From assembly GCA_022771205.1 (NCBI GenBank), contig JALFCF010000003.1:269-64268 (forward strand): a stretch of DNA of 64,000 nt, written 5' to 3'. This document shows, in pieces, positions 32,409 to 41,992 of this stretch; position 1 is the stretch's first letter; every line of letters starts with the position of its first letter. The position numbers and the translations under genes are program-made. The DNA comes from Mycoplasmatota bacterium. GTDB lineage: Bacteria; Bacillota_I; Bacilli_A; RF39; UBA660. The notes below the pieces were generated by a model. It was not told the DNA's origin. It saw nothing but the letters and a program-made list of their open reading frames with translations, and searched no databases.

Positions 32409-32882
32409 TTATTGCCTTTTTATAAGCCTTCTGAGAAATAATACAAGTAATGTCTGTATATAGGGGACAATAATACAAATAGCAACTACAACAATTAAAA
32501 ATAAAAATAATAGTGCTTGACCTAATGCAGCGACAAAGTCATCAGGAATAGAAAAAATATCATAGATAAAAATCATGATGTAATAACACCCACAAACCAG
32601 AAAAACAGCAAGAGCAGGCAAGATAATGGCATAATATAGGATTTTTAATACAGATTTATCCAAACGATTTCCGATTTTAATAAAAGTTTTACTAATAATA
32701 GTGCTAGGAAAACTAACTAAAAAAGCAATTAAAGAAAATATAAAAGCTACAATCCACCAAGAAGAATCTTCATTAATAAACATAATTTTAAATAGAATAA
32801 AGGTAATTCCAACAAGAATCCATCTCGAAATCATATAATATTTCTTCATCTCTTTATTTTCCATAATCTTGCTCCTATACAT
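32409..32882 (-). CDS. hypothetical membrane protein
   Basis: 157 aa, four hydrophobic helices. Confidence 0.4.
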   Translation of the reverse strand: MYRSKIMENKEMKKYYMISRWILVGITFILFKIMFINEDSSWWIVAFIFSLIAFLVSFPSTIISKTFIKIGNRLDKSVLKILYYAIILPALAVFLVCGCYYIMIFIYDIFSIPDDFVAALGQALLFLFLIVVVAICIIVPYIQTLLVLFLRRLIKRQ

Positions 32883-33436
32883 TAAAATTCATCTATATCT
32901 TTTATATGTTCTTTATATTTAGTAATCATTTGAGAATACATATCTTCTCCTAATAAATGTATTAAATAGTCTTCTTTAATAGCTTCTTCATAATTTTCTA
33001 AAGTAACAATTGCCTCACTATTTTGTAATTTAGAGTGACTAATATAATAAGTATGTTCTTCATATATTTGAGAAAGCAAATTATTGTTTACAATATCTTC
33101 TTCTAAATACCAAGTAGGGCTTTCAGTATAATATTCAGTAAAAGGTTTAATATAAGCAAGAACAATTCCTAAACGGTTAGGAGTATTCAATTGATATTTT
33201 AGTTCATTTTGATAACGAGAATTGTATTGATCAATATAAAAATCAGAACCATTTATTTTTTCTTTTTTTAAAAGAGTAACAGTACCAAAAATCATAGCTT
33301 CATTATCAGTAAGTTCAGAAAAGGGATCATAGTTAATTCCTTCTAATAACCGAACTCTTTGAGTACTCTTTAAATATTCTGGAGTCGCAACTATCACCCC
33401 GAAATAATAATCATGAATATCAATAGATTGCTTCAT
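32882..33436 (-). CDS. hypothetical protein
   Basis: 184-aa ORF downstream of pyrH on the minus strand. ATGA overlap with the next gene. Confidence 0.4.
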   Translation of the reverse strand: MKQSIDIHDYYFGVIVATPEYLKSTQRVRLLEGINYDPFSELTDNEAMIFGTVTLLKKEKINGSDFYIDQYNSRYQNELKYQLNTPNRLGIVLAYIKPFTEYYTESPTWYLEEDIVNNNLLSQIYEEHTYYISHSKLQNSEAIVTLENYEEAIKEDYLIHLLGEDMYSQMITKYKEHIKDIDEF

Positions 33437-34154: not shown

Positions 34155-34337
34155 GAAATCCTCCTATCTCTTATATTAAGTGTACCATAAGATTAAAAAA
34201 TATTAAATTTTTTTAAAAATATATAGTAAAGTAAAAGAATTAGACACCATCTTTGTTGTAAAACAAGCATATAGATTGACATTTTAAGGCATTTTTGGTA
34301 TAATAAGCACGCGATAAATCTAAAGGGGGAGTAAAGT

Positions 34338-36344
34338 GTGTCAATATGGCAAACAGATGATTTTAAATCTAACCAAGAATTATATGAACAGATAGATGGT
34401 TTTTTTGAAAACTTACATGGGAGTAAAAACTTAGAGTATCGTCCAGGTCAGCATACCATGGCCTTGGACGTACTAGATGCAATTAGAGAAAAAGAAATTT
34501 TGTTAATAGAAGCTGGTGTTGGAAGTGGTAAATCTTGGGGATATATAGTACCACTTTTATATGCTAATCAAAATAAAGAAAAATTTAAGGGATTTATAAT
34601 ATCTACATCAACAATTGCTTTACAAGAACAATTAATATCAGAAATCGACAGAGTATCAGAAATGTTAGGAATAAATATAGAAGTTGAAGTCGCAAAAGGA
34701 AAAACTAATTATATTTGTGAAGCCAAATTAGATGATTTTTTAAGATTTAATAGAGCAGGGGAAGAATATAAAGAACTAAATAAAAGGGTATCTACTGGAA
34801 AAATAGATAGAAAAGATTTTGATGATGTTCCTCAAAATATTTGGGAAAAAATAAATATTGATAACGTAAATTGTACCTCTTGCTACCTAAAAGATAATTG
34901 CCACTATATCGTCAAGAGAAAACAATGGCCAAAAGCTAGAGCACTTATATGTAATCATGATATGTTAATAGAAGATTTAAAAAGAACAGGTGGTGATAAA
35001 TTATTATTTGTTCCATCACTTTTAGTAGTAGATGAAGCACATGCTTTAGAAGCAAAAATTAGAAATTCATATAAACAAGCTATTTCAAAAAGAAAACTAG
35101 AAGGACTAATTTACACTATTTATGACGCCATAGAGCACCCGATAGAAGGGGATATGGAGATTTTTAACATAATAAATCAAACATTTAGGAAAATTAGTTC
35201 ACGTGCAAAAAAAGAATATAAACAAAATTCAGTCAGAGAAAAAGAAGTATTAGATACAGAAACCAGCGGATTTACACGTACTCCTGCTATTAAAGATCAA
35301 TTAAATGAATTGACTAAGGAGCTAAAACAAATAGAGCAACAGGCCATGAGATATCCTACAAGGAATCCAAAATTAGTTAGCAAGATAAGTGATTTAAAAG
35401 ATATAATAGGAATATTTGAAGACATGAGATTACCAAACAGTAAGAATATTTACTGGGTATCTTTTTTACCACATACAAAAGAACATATAGAAATACAATA
35501 TGTCAAAAAAGACATTACGGAAGATGCAGCACGTCTATTAGGAAATTCTGAATATGGAAAAGTTTTTACATCAGCCACCCTTACCACTAAACAAGACAAT
35601 TATAAATATTTTGCAGAAGGATTAGGAATAGATAAAATATTAGGAATATCTACTACTCCAGAGGACCCACAATTATCTCCGTATAACTATGATGAGAATG
35701 CATTACTATATTACGCACAGGATGTAATGACACCAAAAGCTAAAGATCACGATTTATATTTAGATTCATTAGCAAAAAAAGTAGCCGAAATGATAAGAAT
35801 TACGAACGGTAAGAGTTTAGTTTTATTCACTTCAAAAACTGACATGAAAGAAGTATATCAAAGGTTACAAGAACAAGAATTTCCATTTGACCTACTAATT
35901 CAAGAAGAAGGAAAAAATGCCGAAGTAATAAAAGAAAAATTTAAAAATGACATTAATTCAACTCTTTTAGCATCAGGTGCTTTTTGGGAAGGAATAGATG
36001 TCAAAGGAGAATCACTACAACAAGTAATTATTACGAAATTACCATTTCCAGTAGTTGATCCAATTATTCAAGAAAAGGCATCACAATATACAAATGGATT
36101 TGAAAAAGTTTATATTCCAGAAATGCTTGTAAAATTAAAACAGGGTACGGGTAGATTAATTAGAAGTGCAACTGATCAAGGAATCATAACTATATTGGAT
36201 TCAAGAACACCAGAATATATTGAAACTTTAACAGATAACTTACCATTTTCAAATGTAACTGCAGATTTAGAAAAAGTAAAAGAATTCGCTGATAAAAAAT
36301 TAAATAGTAATAAAAAAGTCTATCAAAAAGTTATAAACCCATAG
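34338..36344 (+). CDS. ATP-dependent DNA helicase, DinG/Rad3 (XPD-like) family
   Basis: Walker A AGVGSGKS, DEAH box VVDEAHALE, four-Cys Fe-S insert (CEAK...CTSCYLKDNCHY...C), C-terminal helicase domain. Confidence 0.75.
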   Translation: MSIWQTDDFKSNQELYEQIDGFFENLHGSKNLEYRPGQHTMALDVLDAIREKEILLIEAGVGSGKSWGYIVPLLYANQNKEKFKGFIISTSTIALQEQLISEIDRVSEMLGINIEVEVAKGKTNYICEAKLDDFLRFNRAGEEYKELNKRVSTGKIDRKDFDDVPQNIWEKINIDNVNCTSCYLKDNCHYIVKRKQWPKARALICNHDMLIEDLKRTGGDKLLFVPSLLVVDEAHALEAKIRNSYKQAISKRKLEGLIYTIYDAIEHPIEGDMEIFNIINQTFRKISSRAKKEYKQNSVREKEVLDTETSGFTRTPAIKDQLNELTKELKQIEQQAMRYPTRNPKLVSKISDLKDIIGIFEDMRLPNSKNIYWVSFLPHTKEHIEIQYVKKDITEDAARLLGNSEYGKVFTSATLTTKQDNYKYFAEGLGIDKILGISTTPEDPQLSPYNYDENALLYYAQDVMTPKAKDHDLYLDSLAKKVAEMIRITNGKSLVLFTSKTDMKEVYQRLQEQEFPFDLLIQEEGKNAEVIKEKFKNDINSTLLASGAFWEGIDVKGESLQQVIITKLPFPVVDPIIQEKASQYTNGFEKVYIPEMLVKLKQGTGRLIRSATDQGIITILDSRTPEYIETLTDNLPFSNVTADLEKVKEFADKKLNSNKKVYQKVINP

Positions 36345-36358
36345 AAAGAGGCGAAAAA

Positions 36359-37339
36359 ATGCAAGAAGAAAGATTAAAGAAAATAATCAAGTTATTAGAT
36401 GAGCAACAAACTGCCATAACTGATTTAACATCAGAAATAGAACAATTAGAACAAGCTCAACAAAACTTACTAACCAAAACACCACCAACACCAGATATTC
36501 AAGAAGCATTATATAATACCGAGCCTATTGTATCTGAATATAATCCTGAAGATGAAATGGAATATTACATAAATAATCTATCAACTATTAATATTGATAC
36601 CCCCGAAATAACAGTAAAAGCGCTACTTCCATCACTACAAAATAAAAATGCTACTAATATTTTACTTCGTCTAAAACTAGAATGTATCAAAAATATGAGA
36701 GAAATAAATGAATTGTTATCAGAGGTTGATGATATATCAGTAGAAGATCTAAAGGGTTTTAAACAGGAATTAAATATAGAGCAAAAAAAATTAGAAATAA
36801 TTAACAAAAGATTGTTACCAGTACCTAAAGAAAAAGCAGAATCAGAAGAGTTACAAGAAAATAAACTTATATTTGTACCAACAACAGGTGGAAATATCAG
36901 GGTATTAGAAGAATTAAAAAGTATTCCATCAGAATATTATGAAAGATTTTATGGCTTATTTTCCTCTATCAAAGATGGGACTTTTAAAAATGTAAAGAGC
37001 TTCAGAAGGTTGAATAACAATGATCCACTTTTTTGTGAAGTAAAAGATACAGCTGTCAGAGTAATGTTTGCTCGTATCGGCCCACAAGAATATGCTGTGA
37101 TAACCTGCTTCATCAAAAAAACGGATAATAACAAAGGCTACAGAAATCAACTAGAACAAAAGATGGGAGACTATAAACAAATTGCACCTATATTAATTGC
37201 TAATCTAGAAAATGAAGAATTTATGGAACAAAACGAGAAGTATGAACAAATGCTATGGGAAACAATAAAAACTGAAAAAGGGGGGAAGAAAACATATGTC
37301 AGACCAGATACAGCTAAGTACAGAAGAAATTTTAAATAA
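36359..37339 (+). CDS. hypothetical protein: N-terminal coiled-coil region fused to a C-terminal RelE/HigB(Gp49)-like fold
   Basis: C-terminal segment ...LFCEVKDTAVRVMFARIGPQEYAVITCFIKKTDNNKGYRNQLEQKMGDY matches the Gp49/HigB-type toxin pattern (ElR..g.Ri.y....vlL.gF.KKt.k). Confidence 0.45.
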   Translation: MQEERLKKIIKLLDEQQTAITDLTSEIEQLEQAQQNLLTKTPPTPDIQEALYNTEPIVSEYNPEDEMEYYINNLSTINIDTPEITVKALLPSLQNKNATNILLRLKLECIKNMREINELLSEVDDISVEDLKGFKQELNIEQKKLEIINKRLLPVPKEKAESEELQENKLIFVPTTGGNIRVLEELKSIPSEYYERFYGLFSSIKDGTFKNVKSFRRLNNNDPLFCEVKDTAVRVMFARIGPQEYAVITCFIKKTDNNKGYRNQLEQKMGDYKQIAPILIANLENEEFMEQNEKYEQMLWETIKTEKGGKKTYVRPDTAKYRRNFK

Positions 37340-39149
37340 ACTTCGTAATAGACAACAAGAATTATTAGAAGAATCAAATGTTAAAAATGAAGAACTAGTA
37401 TGGATAGAAGAGTTTCTAAATCAATCTAATTTATCTGATCCATTAGAATATAACAACATCAATAAGAAAAAATTATTATTAGCATATATGAAAGCCAAAG
37501 CTAATAATTTAGATGTACAAAAAGCAGAAGATTTAATTAAATTAATAATTCCAATATTAGAACAATCTACCCCTGGAAATTCTAAACTTTTTGTAACTCT
37601 TTTATTAACAATGGCTAGTAAAGAATGGTATGAAGAGCTAAAAGATATTATTAAAGATGAAAATGAGATTAGAAGAGGGTATTCTATTAATAAAATGTTT
37701 GAAGAATATATAGAAACTGAAGAGGAAATGGATGCCTTGGATATCATAGTCACTTATCATGGTGGCAGTATATTAAAATATATAGAAGAGATTTCTAAAA
37801 ATTTAAATTCTTGGGAATATGGTATTTCGATAATCATTGCCATGAAAGAAATAGCAGATAGACAAGAAGAATTAGAACAAGAATATAACTCCCGATTTTC
37901 AGCCTTATCATTATCAAAAGAAAAGGAACTAGCAGCAAGACGAAAGATTATTGAAAGAGAATTTTGTATAGAATGTATTGAATCTGAATTGAAAAAAATT
38001 ACATCCTACAAAAAGCGTTTAGAAAGTGAAGAAAAAAGAAAACAAAGACGATTAGAACAAGATATAAAAAAAGTTGCTAACGCTTCTTCTAAACTTGAAA
38101 AATCATCAGATAAAATCATATCTCATTATCTATCATATATATCAGGGATACAAGATACTGAAAGTTGTATATTACTTTTAGAACTAATATATAATTATAA
38201 TCAAAAACATTATCAACAACTAGAAGCACAATGCAATAGATATAAAGCAAACTCTATTTTAAATTATCAAACTCTATGTGATAAACATAATATAGATGGA
38301 AATATAAGTATAGAAGAATTAAGAGACAGGTATGCGTATGAAACATTAGAAGCAGTAATTGACTCTCTAGTCAATTTAGGTATTACAAGTGGAAAAACTC
38401 TCGCAGAAATACTAAAGACATCGAATCCTATGTATCTAAACGAAGTTGGTAAGCTGTTAGAAAAAGGATATATCAATCCAAAAACTCTAGTGAGTACACC
38501 GTCTTTATTGGATCCTAGAAATAAATTGGTAGAAACAGTATATAATAATTTAAGAATATTAGAGGAACAACAAATACCAAGGGAGTACTGTGAAGAAAAA
38601 GAACAACTTCTTTTGGTTTCATCAGAAGCGTTACAAAAAAATATTCCTGTTCTTAAAAGTACTGACTATATAAACAGCTTATACACTACAACTGATTTAA
38701 GTTTTCTAGAATCAGATGAATTAGAAGACGCAATAAATTTATGCTTACAGCTAGGATTAGAAACAGTTCTTGAAGAAGATTTGGATATATTAAATTATTC
38801 AGTATCCCATCTAAAACGACTTGTCATAGCAAGTGATTTGGATTTGCCAATCGAAACTTTACCAGAAGTAAAAAGAATTTTAAAAGATCCATATTTTATC
38901 ATATCAGATGAAAAAATAGATAGATATATTGCATTAAAAGAAGCACAAGAAAACCCAGAAGAAATAAAATTATTACCATTATCAGAAACTAAAAGAACTT
39001 ATCGCCTAGGAAATATTATTTTTCCTAAAAATAAAATAGACTTTCCAAGAGACATGATAGAAAATAATCCACAACTATTATTTTCAAATAGAAAGGTTAC
39101 AAATAGAGAATATCAATATATAAAATCTCAAGGGTCAAATAAAGTATAA
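37296..39149 (+). CDS. hypothetical large alpha-helical protein, translationally overlapped with the upstream gene
   Basis: 617 aa, start overlaps the preceding gene by 44 nt. No catalytic motif recognised. Confidence 0.45.
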   Translation: MSDQIQLSTEEILNKLRNRQQELLEESNVKNEELVWIEEFLNQSNLSDPLEYNNINKKKLLLAYMKAKANNLDVQKAEDLIKLIIPILEQSTPGNSKLFVTLLLTMASKEWYEELKDIIKDENEIRRGYSINKMFEEYIETEEEMDALDIIVTYHGGSILKYIEEISKNLNSWEYGISIIIAMKEIADRQEELEQEYNSRFSALSLSKEKELAARRKIIEREFCIECIESELKKITSYKKRLESEEKRKQRRLEQDIKKVANASSKLEKSSDKIISHYLSYISGIQDTESCILLLELIYNYNQKHYQQLEAQCNRYKANSILNYQTLCDKHNIDGNISIEELRDRYAYETLEAVIDSLVNLGITSGKTLAEILKTSNPMYLNEVGKLLEKGYINPKTLVSTPSLLDPRNKLVETVYNNLRILEEQQIPREYCEEKEQLLLVSSEALQKNIPVLKSTDYINSLYTTTDLSFLESDELEDAINLCLQLGLETVLEEDLDILNYSVSHLKRLVIASDLDLPIETLPEVKRILKDPYFIISDEKIDRYIALKEAQENPEEIKLLPLSETKRTYRLGNIIFPKNKIDFPRDMIENNPQLLFSNRKVTNREYQYIKSQGSNKV

Positions 39150-39158
39150 TGCCTTTGG

Positions 39159-39187
39159 TTGACATAAGATTTGGAATATGATATACT
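39159..39187 (+). promoter_or_regulatory. sigma-70-type promoter for the rplU operon (TTGACA-17-TATACT)
   Basis: TTGACA at 39159-39164, 17-nt spacer, TATACT at 39182-39187. Confidence 0.5.
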
Positions 39188-39288
39188 CTAACTGTTTGAC
39201 GCCTCATGCTCAAACCGCATTGAAAAGGTAAAAACAAGAATACTTGTGCCTTAAGAGCGAGTCTTAAGTTAAAAAAGGAGGTATATGA
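39188..39288 (+). ncRNA. candidate L21 ribosomal-protein leader (autoregulatory 5' UTR)
   Basis: ~100-nt GC-enriched, structured untranslated leader between the promoter and rplU, positioned as Firmicutes L21 leaders are. Confidence 0.3.
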
Positions 39289-40241: not shown

Positions 40242-40730
40242 ATGAATTCAAGAGATATTTATATGAAAATAGCAGAAAAAATGCAAGAAGATGGAATACA
40301 ATTTACAATATTAAGTAGCCAACAAGAAAAAGAAAAAATAATAGAGTCAATGAATAGAGCTTTAATAGAGTACAGTTATGAGAAGTTATGTGAAGCTGCC
40401 ATGCCAGAACAAATAGTTATGGATCTAGGAGTTATATTAGATACAATAGATTCCTTTTTAGTTCAAAAAGAAAAAGAAGAATTCTTTCAGCATTATGTAC
40501 ACTGCATGCTAAATGTTTATAATAATATTGAAAATAAGGCCTTACTATGGAGCCCAGAAGATACTACTAACCCAGAAGAATTTCCGAAATTTGAAAAAGA
40601 AGGAGAATATTTAGAATTTTTTAAGACAGATATAAATAGCAACAATAAAAAAAACGCTTTATGGTTAAATGACTATTTGTCTACAACATATAGTCATAGT
40701 CATAAAGTAGTAAAAAATAACATTAACTAA
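40242..40730 (+). CDS. hypothetical protein
   Basis: 162-aa ORF with RBS AAGGAGGA. Confidence 0.4.
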   Translation: MNSRDIYMKIAEKMQEDGIQFTILSSQQEKEKIIESMNRALIEYSYEKLCEAAMPEQIVMDLGVILDTIDSFLVQKEKEEFFQHYVHCMLNVYNNIENKALLWSPEDTTNPEEFPKFEKEGEYLEFFKTDINSNNKKNALWLNDYLSTTYSHSHKVVKNNIN

Positions 40731-40773
40731 TTGGTTTATTATCACTTTTATGGTAAAATAATACATAATAGAG

Positions 40774-41067
40774 GTGATTTTTATGGAAGATAACAAAATA
40801 ACATTAACAACACCAGATAATAAGACGATAGAAGTAGAAGTTTTAGATATCTTTAATGTAGTGGGGTATGAAGGGAAAGATTATATCATGTATACCCTTG
40901 GAGAAAAAATAGATGAAGAAAACGAAAAAGTATATATATCTATTTTAAATGATAAGGGTGATAATAATTTTGAGTTAGTTGGTATTACTGATGACAAAGA
41001 ATGGGATATGGTAGAAAAGGCGATTCAAGAAGAGATTACGTATGGAGACGACATGAAAGATGAATAA
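40774..41067 (+). CDS. DUF1292-family protein
   Basis: Small acidic protein. ITL..DNKTIEVEVLDIF...YI.Y...........V.I.......ELV.I.DD.EWDMVEKAI pattern. Confidence 0.5.
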   Translation: MIFMEDNKITLTTPDNKTIEVEVLDIFNVVGYEGKDYIMYTLGEKIDEENEKVYISILNDKGDNNFELVGITDDKEWDMVEKAIQEEITYGDDMKDE

Positions 41068-41992
41068 TTCAGAAAATACTTATAAAATAATGCTAGAAAA
41101 ATCTTTGTATAGAATTACAGATGAAATTAATTTATTAGAAGAACAAAAAGACGGTTTGTTTAGTATAGTAAAACAAACAGAGAAAAAAATTGAACGCCTT
41201 CGCATAGAACAAGCACAACTTCAAAGAGAATTAGCAAAACGAAATGCAGAAGATTTTTCTAGAGAAGAAGGAATAGTTGAAAAAATTGTAGATGAAAGAG
41301 TTTCAAAAGCTAATCAAAAAGAGAACTCTTATGAAACAAAAATACAGAATCTAAACAAACTAAAAGATAATGCCAAATCTAATGCTGGTCGACGTAACAT
41401 TGAGCGAAAAATTGTTCGAGAACAAACAAAGATGTTCAGATATAGAAAGTATGTAAAATTAGTAACTACTGTCCAAAGAGCAACTATTATACCAAAGTAT
41501 ATGTTGGATAAATATAGATTAGGAAAATTTGCTAAAAGACAAGGAAATGTAAATTATTATGAAAATAAGGTTGCTGAAACAGAGCATAAACAAAGTTTAT
41601 TGAATCCTGAAGAGAGTATAGTGGATAAAGTTCAATCTGTATATTATGATAAAAAAGGAAAATATTATGCTAAAAGATTAGATCAAGCTAACAAAAAACT
41701 AGAAAAACTACAGCGAAAAGGCGTACAAAATCGTATTTTAGGAGCAAATGTTGCTGTGATGAATAAAAAAGATACAGATAAGTTACGAAAAAGAATGGAT
41801 CAGCATAAAGCTAAAAAGAATGAACAAAATGATAGTATTATTGTCAATCCTGAAAAGAAACAATTGCCATTAGTAATTTCGCAAAGTCAAATACCAGAGG
41901 ATATTACAGCAGAAAGTCTTGCTGAGATAGCAGTAAATGGTGAATCAAAAACAAGCATGAATCAAAATACAAGATCCACAAAGGTTGCATAA
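41060..41992 (+). CDS. hypothetical basic coiled-coil protein
   Basis: 310 aa, K/R/E-rich. Confidence 0.4.
   Translation: MNNSENTYKIMLEKSLYRITDEINLLEEQKDGLFSIVKQTEKKIERLRIEQAQLQRELAKRNAEDFSREEGIVEKIVDERVSKANQKENSYETKIQNLNKLKDNAKSNAGRRNIERKIVREQTKMFRYRKYVKLVTTVQRATIIPKYMLDKYRLGKFAKRQGNVNYYENKVAETEHKQSLLNPEESIVDKVQSVYYDKKGKYYAKRLDQANKKLEKLQRKGVQNRILGANVAVMNKKDTDKLRKRMDQHKAKKNEQNDSIIVNPEKKQLPLVISQSQIPEDITAESLAEIAVNGESKTSMNQNTRSTKVA

Follow-up and report, generated by a model that had tools for sequence, protein, structure and literature searches.

RelE/HigB toxins are usually regarded as small, mobile and dispensable proteins, antitoxins are usually acidic, and a toxin-first gene order with coupling of the two genes is the arrangement of HigBA. 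Toxin and partner may also lie in one polypeptide, as is reportedly the case for the fused toxin-antitoxin (TA) CapRel-SJ46 and presumably for EzeT, which we take as a second fused comparator. MazEF/EndoA (NdoA) is fixed upstream of the sigB operon in Bacillales and is co-transcribed with housekeeping or regulatory genes, and Rae1 (YacP) of B. subtilis, a non-toxin with an NYN/PIN-like fold, is a ribosome-dependent A-site endonuclease. Nucleases of the BECR/RelE type, Gp49 among them, form the C-termini of Menshen NsnC (PMC12065111). Here we describe a gene pair, A and B, in a stretch of 64,000 nucleotides (nt) from a Mycoplasmatota bacterium (GenBank assembly GCA_022771205.1, contig JALFCF010000003.1, positions 269 to 64,268; hereafter the window). 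In contrast to the usual picture of RelE/HigB toxins, what appears to be the same catalytic domain is here part of a larger protein with a coupled 72-kDa partner, and the pair has stayed at housekeeping loci while a large group of uncultured gut bacteria diversified. We tentatively read A as a regulated, ribosome-dependent mRNase controlled by B, and the pair as a chromosomally fixed, non-canonical, toxin-first HigBA-like module, an interpretation that we prefer and place slightly short of probable.

A first-pass annotation, made from the letters of the window, had pointed out two overlapping open reading frames (ORFs) of 326 and 617 amino acids (aa), and both are found in the six-frame ORF list with the 44-nt overlap that it gave:

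36359..37339, + strand, gene A, 326 aa (six-frame ORF list)
37296..39149, + strand, gene B, 617 aa, 72 kDa (six-frame ORF list)
37280..37339, + strand, A/B junction, with GGGGGGAAG at 37280-37288 and the B start codon at 37296

The stretch shared by the two genes (37296-37339, 44 nt) coincides with the disordered tail of A. The purine-rich run GGGGGGAAG (37280-37288) resembles a Shine-Dalgarno sequence and lies about 10 nt 5' of the ATG of B, the start residue of B is the same in close homologues, and AAGAGG stands 5' of the start of A. No membrane segment was predicted in either A or B.

An AlphaFold model of A built on 86 homologues (mean predicted local distance difference test score, pLDDT, 83.6; predicted TM-score, pTM, 0.71) gives an acidic helical N-region, a HigB/RelE-fold domain, a helical hairpin and a disordered basic tail, in this order. 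The first three parts are as follows:

36359..36853, + strand, A residues 1-165, acidic helical N-region (AlphaFold helices 2-39, 63-74, 83-88, 98-122 and 128-152)
36860..37129, + strand, A residues 168-257, HigB/Gp49-type RelE-fold domain, beta-alpha-alpha-beta-beta-beta
37130..37273, + strand, A residues 258-305, C-terminal helical hairpin (helices 258-284 and 286-303), kept in the fused variant described below

The predicted RelE/ParE (BECR) core spans residues 169-252, mostly at pLDDT 80-95, with elements beta169-172, alpha181-188, alpha191-206, beta225-230, beta233-239 and beta244-252. When the model was compared with the PDB by Foldseek, S. pneumoniae HigB (6af4/6af3) came out on top (E 3e-4, probability 1.0, TMt 0.51-0.65), followed by M. 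tuberculosis (Mtb) HigB1 (7nbu), V. cholerae HigB2 (5jaa), RelE (3bpq), ParE2, BrnT and Cami1; sequence similarity to the characterised HigB toxins among these matches was 15-17%. At the level of profiles, Pfam Gp49 (PF05973) matched A of the window over profile positions 1-83 of 90 (17.2 bits, E 0.0054) and 38/86 members of the A family at E<0.01 (best 2e-5). The PADLOC NsnC model matched A of the window at E 7e-5, covering only the C-terminal effector domain of that model (A residues 225-275), and this effector-domain model matched 50/86 family members. By structural modelling, A is thus shown to carry a HigB/Gp49-type RelE-fold domain; on sequence grounds we regard it as a distant relative of Gp49 and do not call it a member. 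The first-pass annotation had described A as about 200 aa of coiled coil that end in a RelE/HigB(Gp49) pattern. Its quoted motif (LFCEVKD...FIKKTDNNKGY) lies at residues 224-261, and the pattern is borne out by the Gp49, NsnC and HigB structure matches; the protein does not end in it, as the domain occupies residues ~168-257 and is followed by about 50 aa of hairpin and by the basic tail. Nor does the coiled coil survive in that form: the N-region measures 165 aa and consists of five main helices and a disordered acidic linker. Its isoelectric point (pI) is 4.3-4.8, with the motifs FEDEVxYY and LPSRxNxxYxxILxRLKLE, and the HigB domain is basic, with a median pI of 9.3. Homologues of A form at least 137 clusters, all of about 310-350 aa.

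HigB fragments, fetched with a made-up Gp49-like bait consensus that was used for retrieval only, were then aligned with A by hhalign. E227, K229, R234, F251 and K253 of A correspond to E66, R68, R73, F90 and K92 of S. pneumoniae HigB with identical spacing, and R234, F251 and K253 correspond to R77, F93 and K95 of Mtb HigB1. These positions were followed through 63 distinct A homologues from the fetched loci; outside them the protein has diverged to ~30% identity:

37037..37117, + strand, putative active-site codons (E227 at 37037-39, K229 at 37043-45, R234 at 37058-60, F251 at 37109-11, K253 at 37115-17)
E227, conserved in 63/63
K229 (K or R), conserved in 63/63
R234, conserved in 62/63
F251, conserved in 60/63
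K253, conserved in 63/63

In pneumococcal HigB, mutations of R68, R73 and F90 lower the RNase activity and abolish toxicity, and K92A causes a weaker drop in both (PMC7984235). Alanine at R68, R77 or K95 of Mtb HigB1 abolishes toxicity (PMC9098466). By alignment, A carries the putative catalytic and RNA-positioning residues of the HigB type. Structure prediction, the check that had been proposed for the first-pass assignment, found a RelE fold, and the alignments showed conserved HigB active-site residues.

The pairing of A with B is strict. A profile search found a B homologue directly 3' of A in 62/63 distinct A sequences, and junctions over the 62 pairs ranged from -71 to +4 nt, 51 of them overlapping (with longest ORFs used); the co-conservation of the pair, also put forward for checking, is therefore clear. 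Seven loci (L007, L008, L011, L012, L018, L019 and L021) contain two tandem A-B pairs. In a neighbour-joining tree the tandem copies are old paralogues common to several species, and each B copy groups in line with its own A copy. Distance matrices of A and B correlate at r = 0.86, those of A and Obg at r = 0.65, and the partial correlation of A and B given Obg is 0.77. Conserved adjacency, tight junctions and co-diverging paralogues are what is expected of the adjacent paired genes of a type II TA system. Median distances are 0.69 for A, 0.81 for B and 0.13 for Obg, so that the two proteins diverge at five to six times the rate of Obg. The ratio of nonsynonymous to synonymous substitution rates (dN/dS) is 0.10-0.28 for A and 0.15-0.37 for B, which indicates purifying selection on both. 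The order of the tandem pairs varies, with type 1 first in L007/L008 and type 2 first in L019.

Protein B apparently belongs to a family of its own. An exhaustive representative search returned 308 clusters at 50% identity, and most of the homologues among the best 150 of these 308 clusters are 570-670 aa long, with a few shorter; word-indexed searches with a single sequence or a 7-sequence profile gave 13 close relatives, and their candidate list was swamped by low-complexity words. The AlphaFold model of B (100 sequences, pLDDT 93.4) is essentially all-helical, and the protein can be divided into three parts:

37296..38225, + strand, B residues 1-~310, N-terminal helical half, with a long basic helix at 225-269, an IYxHNxxYY motif and invariant N302
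38226..38930, + strand, B residues ~311-545, repeat-like short helices, acidic (AlphaFold helices, weak internal repeat)
38931..39146, + strand, B residues 546-617, small C-terminal beta/alpha domain with conserved TxRTYxxxGxxxSKNKVxRN

The helix at 225-269 is 45 residues long, and the array of short helices runs over about 288-545 with a weak internal repeat that carries an L..L..(G/N)I motif. The best-conserved stretch is 476-545 (LELGxExxLEEDLxLLNY, pI 4.4). B has a net charge of about -17 and is basic only at residues 206-280; the acidic repeat array argues for protein binding over nucleic-acid binding. One unit, at 346-396, resembles a winged helix-turn-helix (HTH), and matches of CasR/Csa3 winged-HTH models to B are weak and occur in 3-4 of 63 members. 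B gave no match in Pfam, NCBIfam or PHROG, none in PADLOC beyond weak HTH noise, and none in a profile search of PDB sequences beyond coiled-coil noise; in the homology comparison, B and the N-region of A shared no similarity. Foldseek searches of the B model against the PDB and the viral models of BFVD gave nothing significant. Human mTERF1 chains recur among the Foldseek matches (probability up to 0.97, TMt 0.39, E no lower than 0.28). Pfam mTERF has no match in B, and we rate the similarity as a weak resemblance. SpoIVFA/B, RecN, EzrA and RNase G, considered as identities from Bacillus synteny, were dropped, as none of their Pfam models matched. By sequence, B founds a new, unannotated family of acidic helical proteins.

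Two loci of the most divergent clade, L053 and L056, at first looked like A without B. Their HigB domain is as close to those of B-containing relatives as those are to one another, and all similarity in the N-region is lost. In L056, the ORF that precedes the HigB domain was the best non-B match of the B profile (hmmsearch E 1.7e-5 among 1338 ORFs), with a score of 19.7 bits where 300 shuffles reached no more than -8.5; the L053 frame runs off the contig end. A metagenomic contig, L062, carries a single intact 618-aa ORF between a GH31 gene and an aminoacyl-tRNA synthetase gene, the same slot in which the sister species L052 has split A followed by B; L054 has split A then B too, on a contig that ends 629 nt past B, before the synthetase. 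Residues 55-380 of the 618-aa ORF are collinear with B ~4-310 (hhalign P 1.6e-4, 281 columns), and residues 421-613 correspond to A positions 120-315 (E 2.5e-39) and retain the catalytic residues. The fused variant is without A residues 1-119 and without the C-half of B, and its N-part is probably homologous to the N-half of B. In L056 a 1-nt difference in an A-run (L056:5850-5930) splits the gene, whereas the near-identical L062 contig has the gene intact; the cause is an error in the assembly or else a frameshift at strain level. The HigB domain of the fused branch has a dN/dS of 0.06. We therefore dropped the idea that orphan A exists and that B is dispensable, as the supposed orphans are a single fused gene of the B N-half and the HigB domain. 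If the fusion homology holds, the N-half of B would always accompany the HigB domain, in trans or in cis. The joint loss of A(1-119) and B(311-617) suggests that these two parts work with each other.

A scan for A in one genome per species gave 55 loci, all from metagenome-assembled genomes of uncultured gut bacteria that carry the labels Bacilli, Tenericutes or Mycoplasmatota, and Candidatus Faecimonas is the label of near-identical cluster members. One A homologue lies on a 1.39-Mb contig. Among about 60 loci, no integrase, phage or defence gene adjoins the pair; an IS91-type transposase lies about 5 kb downstream of it in L060. Searches of 50,697 phage records, 72,556 plasmids and IMG/VR gave no relatives of A or B. 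Genomic context thus indicates that the pair is vertically inherited and non-mobile in at least 55 species of one uncultured gut Bacilli group, and patchiness, association with mobile elements and phage or plasmid relatives, the traits of mobile TA modules and defence islands, were not seen. The first-pass suggestion of a TA or phage-defence system, if taken in the typical, mobile sense, does not fit this vertical occurrence at housekeeping loci, nor the absence of phage, plasmid and IMG/VR relatives and of NsnA/NsnB. Its other suggestion, a repurposed RelE-fold translation factor, may still hold.

The genes rplU-prp-rpmA(-obg) follow the pair in 33/58 loci, and the other 23 loci with room have different housekeeping neighbours, namely LD-carboxypeptidase, SpoIVB peptidase, exonuclease VII, MiaA, several aminoacyl-tRNA synthetases, S10-L3, GH31, sugar transferases and AddAB. 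As rplU has its own promoter and leader and 23/58 loci lie elsewhere, we dropped a functional tie to the L21 operon as a requirement; the link of the pair to that operon is one of synteny only. In the window the flanks are as the first-pass annotation had named them, a DinG/YoaA-like helicase gene upstream and rplU-prp-rpmA downstream of B:

34276..34304, + strand, consensus sigma-70 promoter, TTGACA-17-TATAAT with TG, 12/12 match
34338..36344, + strand, DinG/YoaA-like helicase gene (Helicase_C_2, YoaA/DinG models)
39159..39187, + strand, rplU promoter, 11/12 match with TG, marking the module boundary
39203..39274, + strand, L21-leader-like RNA upstream of rplU (RF00559, full-length, 32.1 bits vs gathering score 36, E 5.4e-5)

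The helicase gene stops at 36344 and A starts at 36359. The 14 nt that separate them contain no promoter-like site, and no dedicated promoter of A occurs in the window; the promoter at 34276-34304 probably drives a helicase-A-B unit. The RNA at 39203-39274 is probably a divergent L21 leader of this lineage. Since rplU has its own promoter and an L21-leader-like RNA, the transcription unit is probably helicase-A-B, apart from the L21 operon. The helicase neighbours the pair in some relatives only, preceding A in L032/L036 and following B in L003/L005, and we treat it as context, apparently co-transcribed with the pair and outside the module. G+C is flat across the region, at about 0.27-0.31, and gives no hint of foreign DNA. 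A tRNA scan and an Rfam search at gathering thresholds gave zero matches in the 64-kb window.

Several further observations concern the neighbourhood. The window has positive GC skew and nearly all of its genes on the + strand, the picture expected of a leading-strand chromosomal segment. Between rpmA and obg (40242-41992) are three genes, encoding a 162-aa protein of no family, a 97-aa DUF1292 protein and a 310-aa lysine-rich protein of no family, and they recur in the same place in L003, L014, L028 and L016. A 184-aa ORF without a family on the - strand (32882-33436; weak DUF3848 match, E 0.014) is kept beside pyrH in L003, L005, L007 and L011. In L026, L038, L040, L043-L045 and L052-L059 the non-rplU neighbours are often translation genes (LeuRS, ValRS, Tyr/TrpRS, an Asp/Asn/Lys-type synthetase, MiaA, S10-L3), which may be chance in small genomes. 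A 939-aa leucyl-tRNA synthetase (LeuRS) stands upstream of the pair in L043 (2755-5571), and also in L045, with NUDIX (PF00293) at residues 376-500; an insertion of NUDIX right after the LeuRS editing domain is an unusual architecture. A SpoIVB-type peptidase (Peptidase_S55 + PDZ) is directly downstream of the pair at L023:7306-8301 and L027:8613-9596, suggesting that some of these uncultured Bacilli lineages may sporulate.

These results can be combined in a model in which A would be a ribosome-dependent mRNA endonuclease that cuts A-site codons and shuts down translation, and B would be its stoichiometric controlling subunit, made from the overlapping, translationally coupled gene. The N-half of B would work directly with the HigB domain, and the acidic C-terminal repeat array of B would either dock on the acidic N-region of A or serve as a sensing or regulatory module. 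At rest, B, or its cis equivalent in the fused variant, would most likely hold the nuclease inactive, and its release would come from a trigger such as stress, infection or the loss of B. The natural joining of the N-half of B to the HigB domain in the fused branch lends indirect support to a putative neutralisation by direct binding. We infer this direction of control, inhibition by B, from the HigBA-like gene order and coupling, the acidic partner, the co-diverging cognate paralogues and the parallel with fused TA proteins.

Several results weigh against this model. A of the window, at 17.2 bits, does not reach the Gp49 gathering threshold of 23.9 bits, and a profile of the A domain retrieved zero HigB from PDB sequences, only coiled-coil noise, as did a profile of the whole A family; the homology of A to HigB thus rests on weak recurrent matches together with structure. 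A profile of only the seven most divergent B sequences failed to score the N-part of the fused protein, and its homology to B is for this reason rated probable, not certain. At 617 aa and without a recognisable DNA-binding antitoxin domain, B is not the small, DNA-binding, autoregulating antitoxin of a type II TA system, and no recurrent operator-like palindrome or inverted repeat was found upstream of A in 8 loci. Finally, the vertical, syntenic spread, with no mobile neighbours and no phage, plasmid or IMG/VR relatives, is atypical of TA or defence modules and would fit a housekeeping role.

That last point leads to the most credible of the alternatives, which we still consider somewhat unlikely: a domesticated housekeeping factor, in which A would be an active A-site endonuclease for mRNA surveillance, ribosome rescue or growth-rate control, and B, instead of inhibiting it, would act as its adaptor or targeting subunit. 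Synteny kept in at least 55 species and A distances that follow Obg (r = 0.65) speak for it, together with neighbours that are solely housekeeping and in many cases translation-related (rplU-rpmA-obg in 33/58; aminoacyl-tRNA synthetases, MiaA and S10-L3 elsewhere). The family is missing from the phage, plasmid and IMG/VR collections and is retained in seemingly small genomes, as the homologue on the 1.39-Mb contig illustrates; its active site is under strong purifying selection, the fused lineage included, and the operon promoter is strong and looks constitutive. However, rates of evolution five to six times that of Obg, as seen for A and B, are unusual for core translation factors, the ancient cognate paralogous pairs and the acidic partner are typical of toxin-antitoxin logic, and the link to rplU, which has its own promoter and leader, is not universal. 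A narrower version, in which a HigB-type A-site endonuclease was domesticated, throughout a lineage of uncultured gut Bacilli with reduced genomes, as a core, vertically inherited factor of translation surveillance or growth control and B is a new acidic helical-repeat adaptor that brings it to the ribosome or gates it there, we judge unlikely. The same conserved active site bears on the idea that the RelE fold is inert, a binding module for ribosome, RNA or protein in a structural or regulatory complex unrelated to RNA cleavage. The related paralogues HigB2 and HigB3 of Mtb are non-toxic (PMC9098466), ParE toxins share the fold without RNase activity, and similarity to the characterised HigB toxins is as low as 15-17%; yet all five positions equivalent to residues important in HigB are kept in a family diverged to ~30% identity, a pattern that would be difficult to account for if this site neither catalysed cleavage nor at least bound RNA, and that makes an inert fold improbable.

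A release of the nuclease by infection would be central to an anti-phage role, in which B, or the N-region of A together with the C-half of B, would sense a phage product and free the HigB-type RNase for abortive infection. The resemblance of the domain to the Gp49/BECR effector of Menshen NsnC, the fast evolution of the non-catalytic parts, the diversified paralogous pairs and the split and fused architectures, known from CapRel-type systems, are all consistent with such a role. The genomic context is not: none of about 60 loci lies in a defence island or mobile context, the distribution is vertical and not patchy, no NsnA/NsnB or other defence genes are nearby, and the PADLOC matches of B are weak HTH noise. 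As dN/dS is also well below 1, without a sign of positive selection at whole-gene level, we regard defence as quite unlikely. Superficially, the layout also recalls a secreted polymorphic toxin (LXG/T7SS-like) with B as its immunity protein: in A a BECR-type nuclease domain lies C-terminal to a helical N-region, and a second gene adjoins A downstream. This we find barely credible, as A has no match to LXG or another secretion domain, its toxin domain is the most conserved part and its N-region the most variable, the reverse of polymorphic toxins, and immunity proteins are far smaller than B; the loci keep a stable synteny with no secretion genes nearby, and a cis fusion of the B N-half with the nuclease would make no sense for an exported toxin.

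What appears new here is a HigB-type nuclease in a three-part architecture, a new family of 72-kDa partners, naturally split and fused forms and a lineage-wide chromosomal fixation. If A is a regulated nuclease, the range of TA-like architectures would widen to include a large partner, split and fused sisters and accessory docking modules that are gained or lost jointly. If the housekeeping alternative holds, the pair would clearly exemplify how a toxin RNase can be drafted into the core control of translation. The pairing with A also gives a first functional handle on the B family, which has hundreds of members and no annotation.

A has no LXG match, its C-terminal domain is conserved and its partner is 617 aa, unlike LXG and other polymorphic toxins. 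Rae1 offers a functional analogy for the housekeeping alternative, with an unrelated fold and no B-type partner. MazEF/EndoA is a precedent for a toxin RNase module fixed at one chromosomal position across an order-level group, although its toxin has a MazF/CcdB-like fold and its proteins are small and canonical. The mTERF proteins and their relatives, the pTERF proteins reported in prokaryotes (PMC11417379), consist, like part of B, of short helices in series in which an L..L..(G/N)I motif recurs; unlike mTERF with its basic nucleic-acid-binding groove, B is strongly acidic, and its N-half and C-terminal beta domain have no counterpart there. Cami1 (CRISPR-associated, 8PHB; Foldseek rank 14) resembles A in joining a RelE-fold domain to a larger regulatory portion, but the match is weak (E 0.42) and A-B has no CARF-type sensor or CRISPR context. 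Menshen NsnC places a BECR/Gp49-type nuclease behind an N-terminal adaptor thought to dock on a partner, an arrangement that A would share. The N-region of A, in contrast, has no inactive PIN domain, the pair lies in no defence locus, and neither NsnA (ParB-DUF262) nor NsnB (ABC ATPase-DUF3696) is present in the window or in any fetched locus, so that the pair is not Menshen. The cis arrangement of the fused proteins CapRel-SJ46 and EzeT is matched by the L062/L056/L053 branch, with a HigB-type RNase here versus toxSAS or a zeta kinase there, and with the split form ancestral and dominant in our family. The closest comparison is with HigBA of the Gp49/PF05973 branch (6AF3/6AF4; Mtb HigB1 of TAC, 7NBU). 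Unlike in HigBA, the toxin domain of A is embedded in 326 aa with a 165-aa acidic N-region and a C-terminal hairpin, its partner is a 617-aa all-helical protein without an XRE-HTH, similarity is below the Pfam threshold, operator palindromes were not found, and the pair is vertical and syntenic, not mobile. Yet HigBA proteins are the best structural matches of A, with the RelE fold in common, and the active-site constellation E-x-R/K-x4-R...F-x-K is shared with identical spacing, as are the toxin-first order, the tightly coupled downstream partner and the acidity of that partner.

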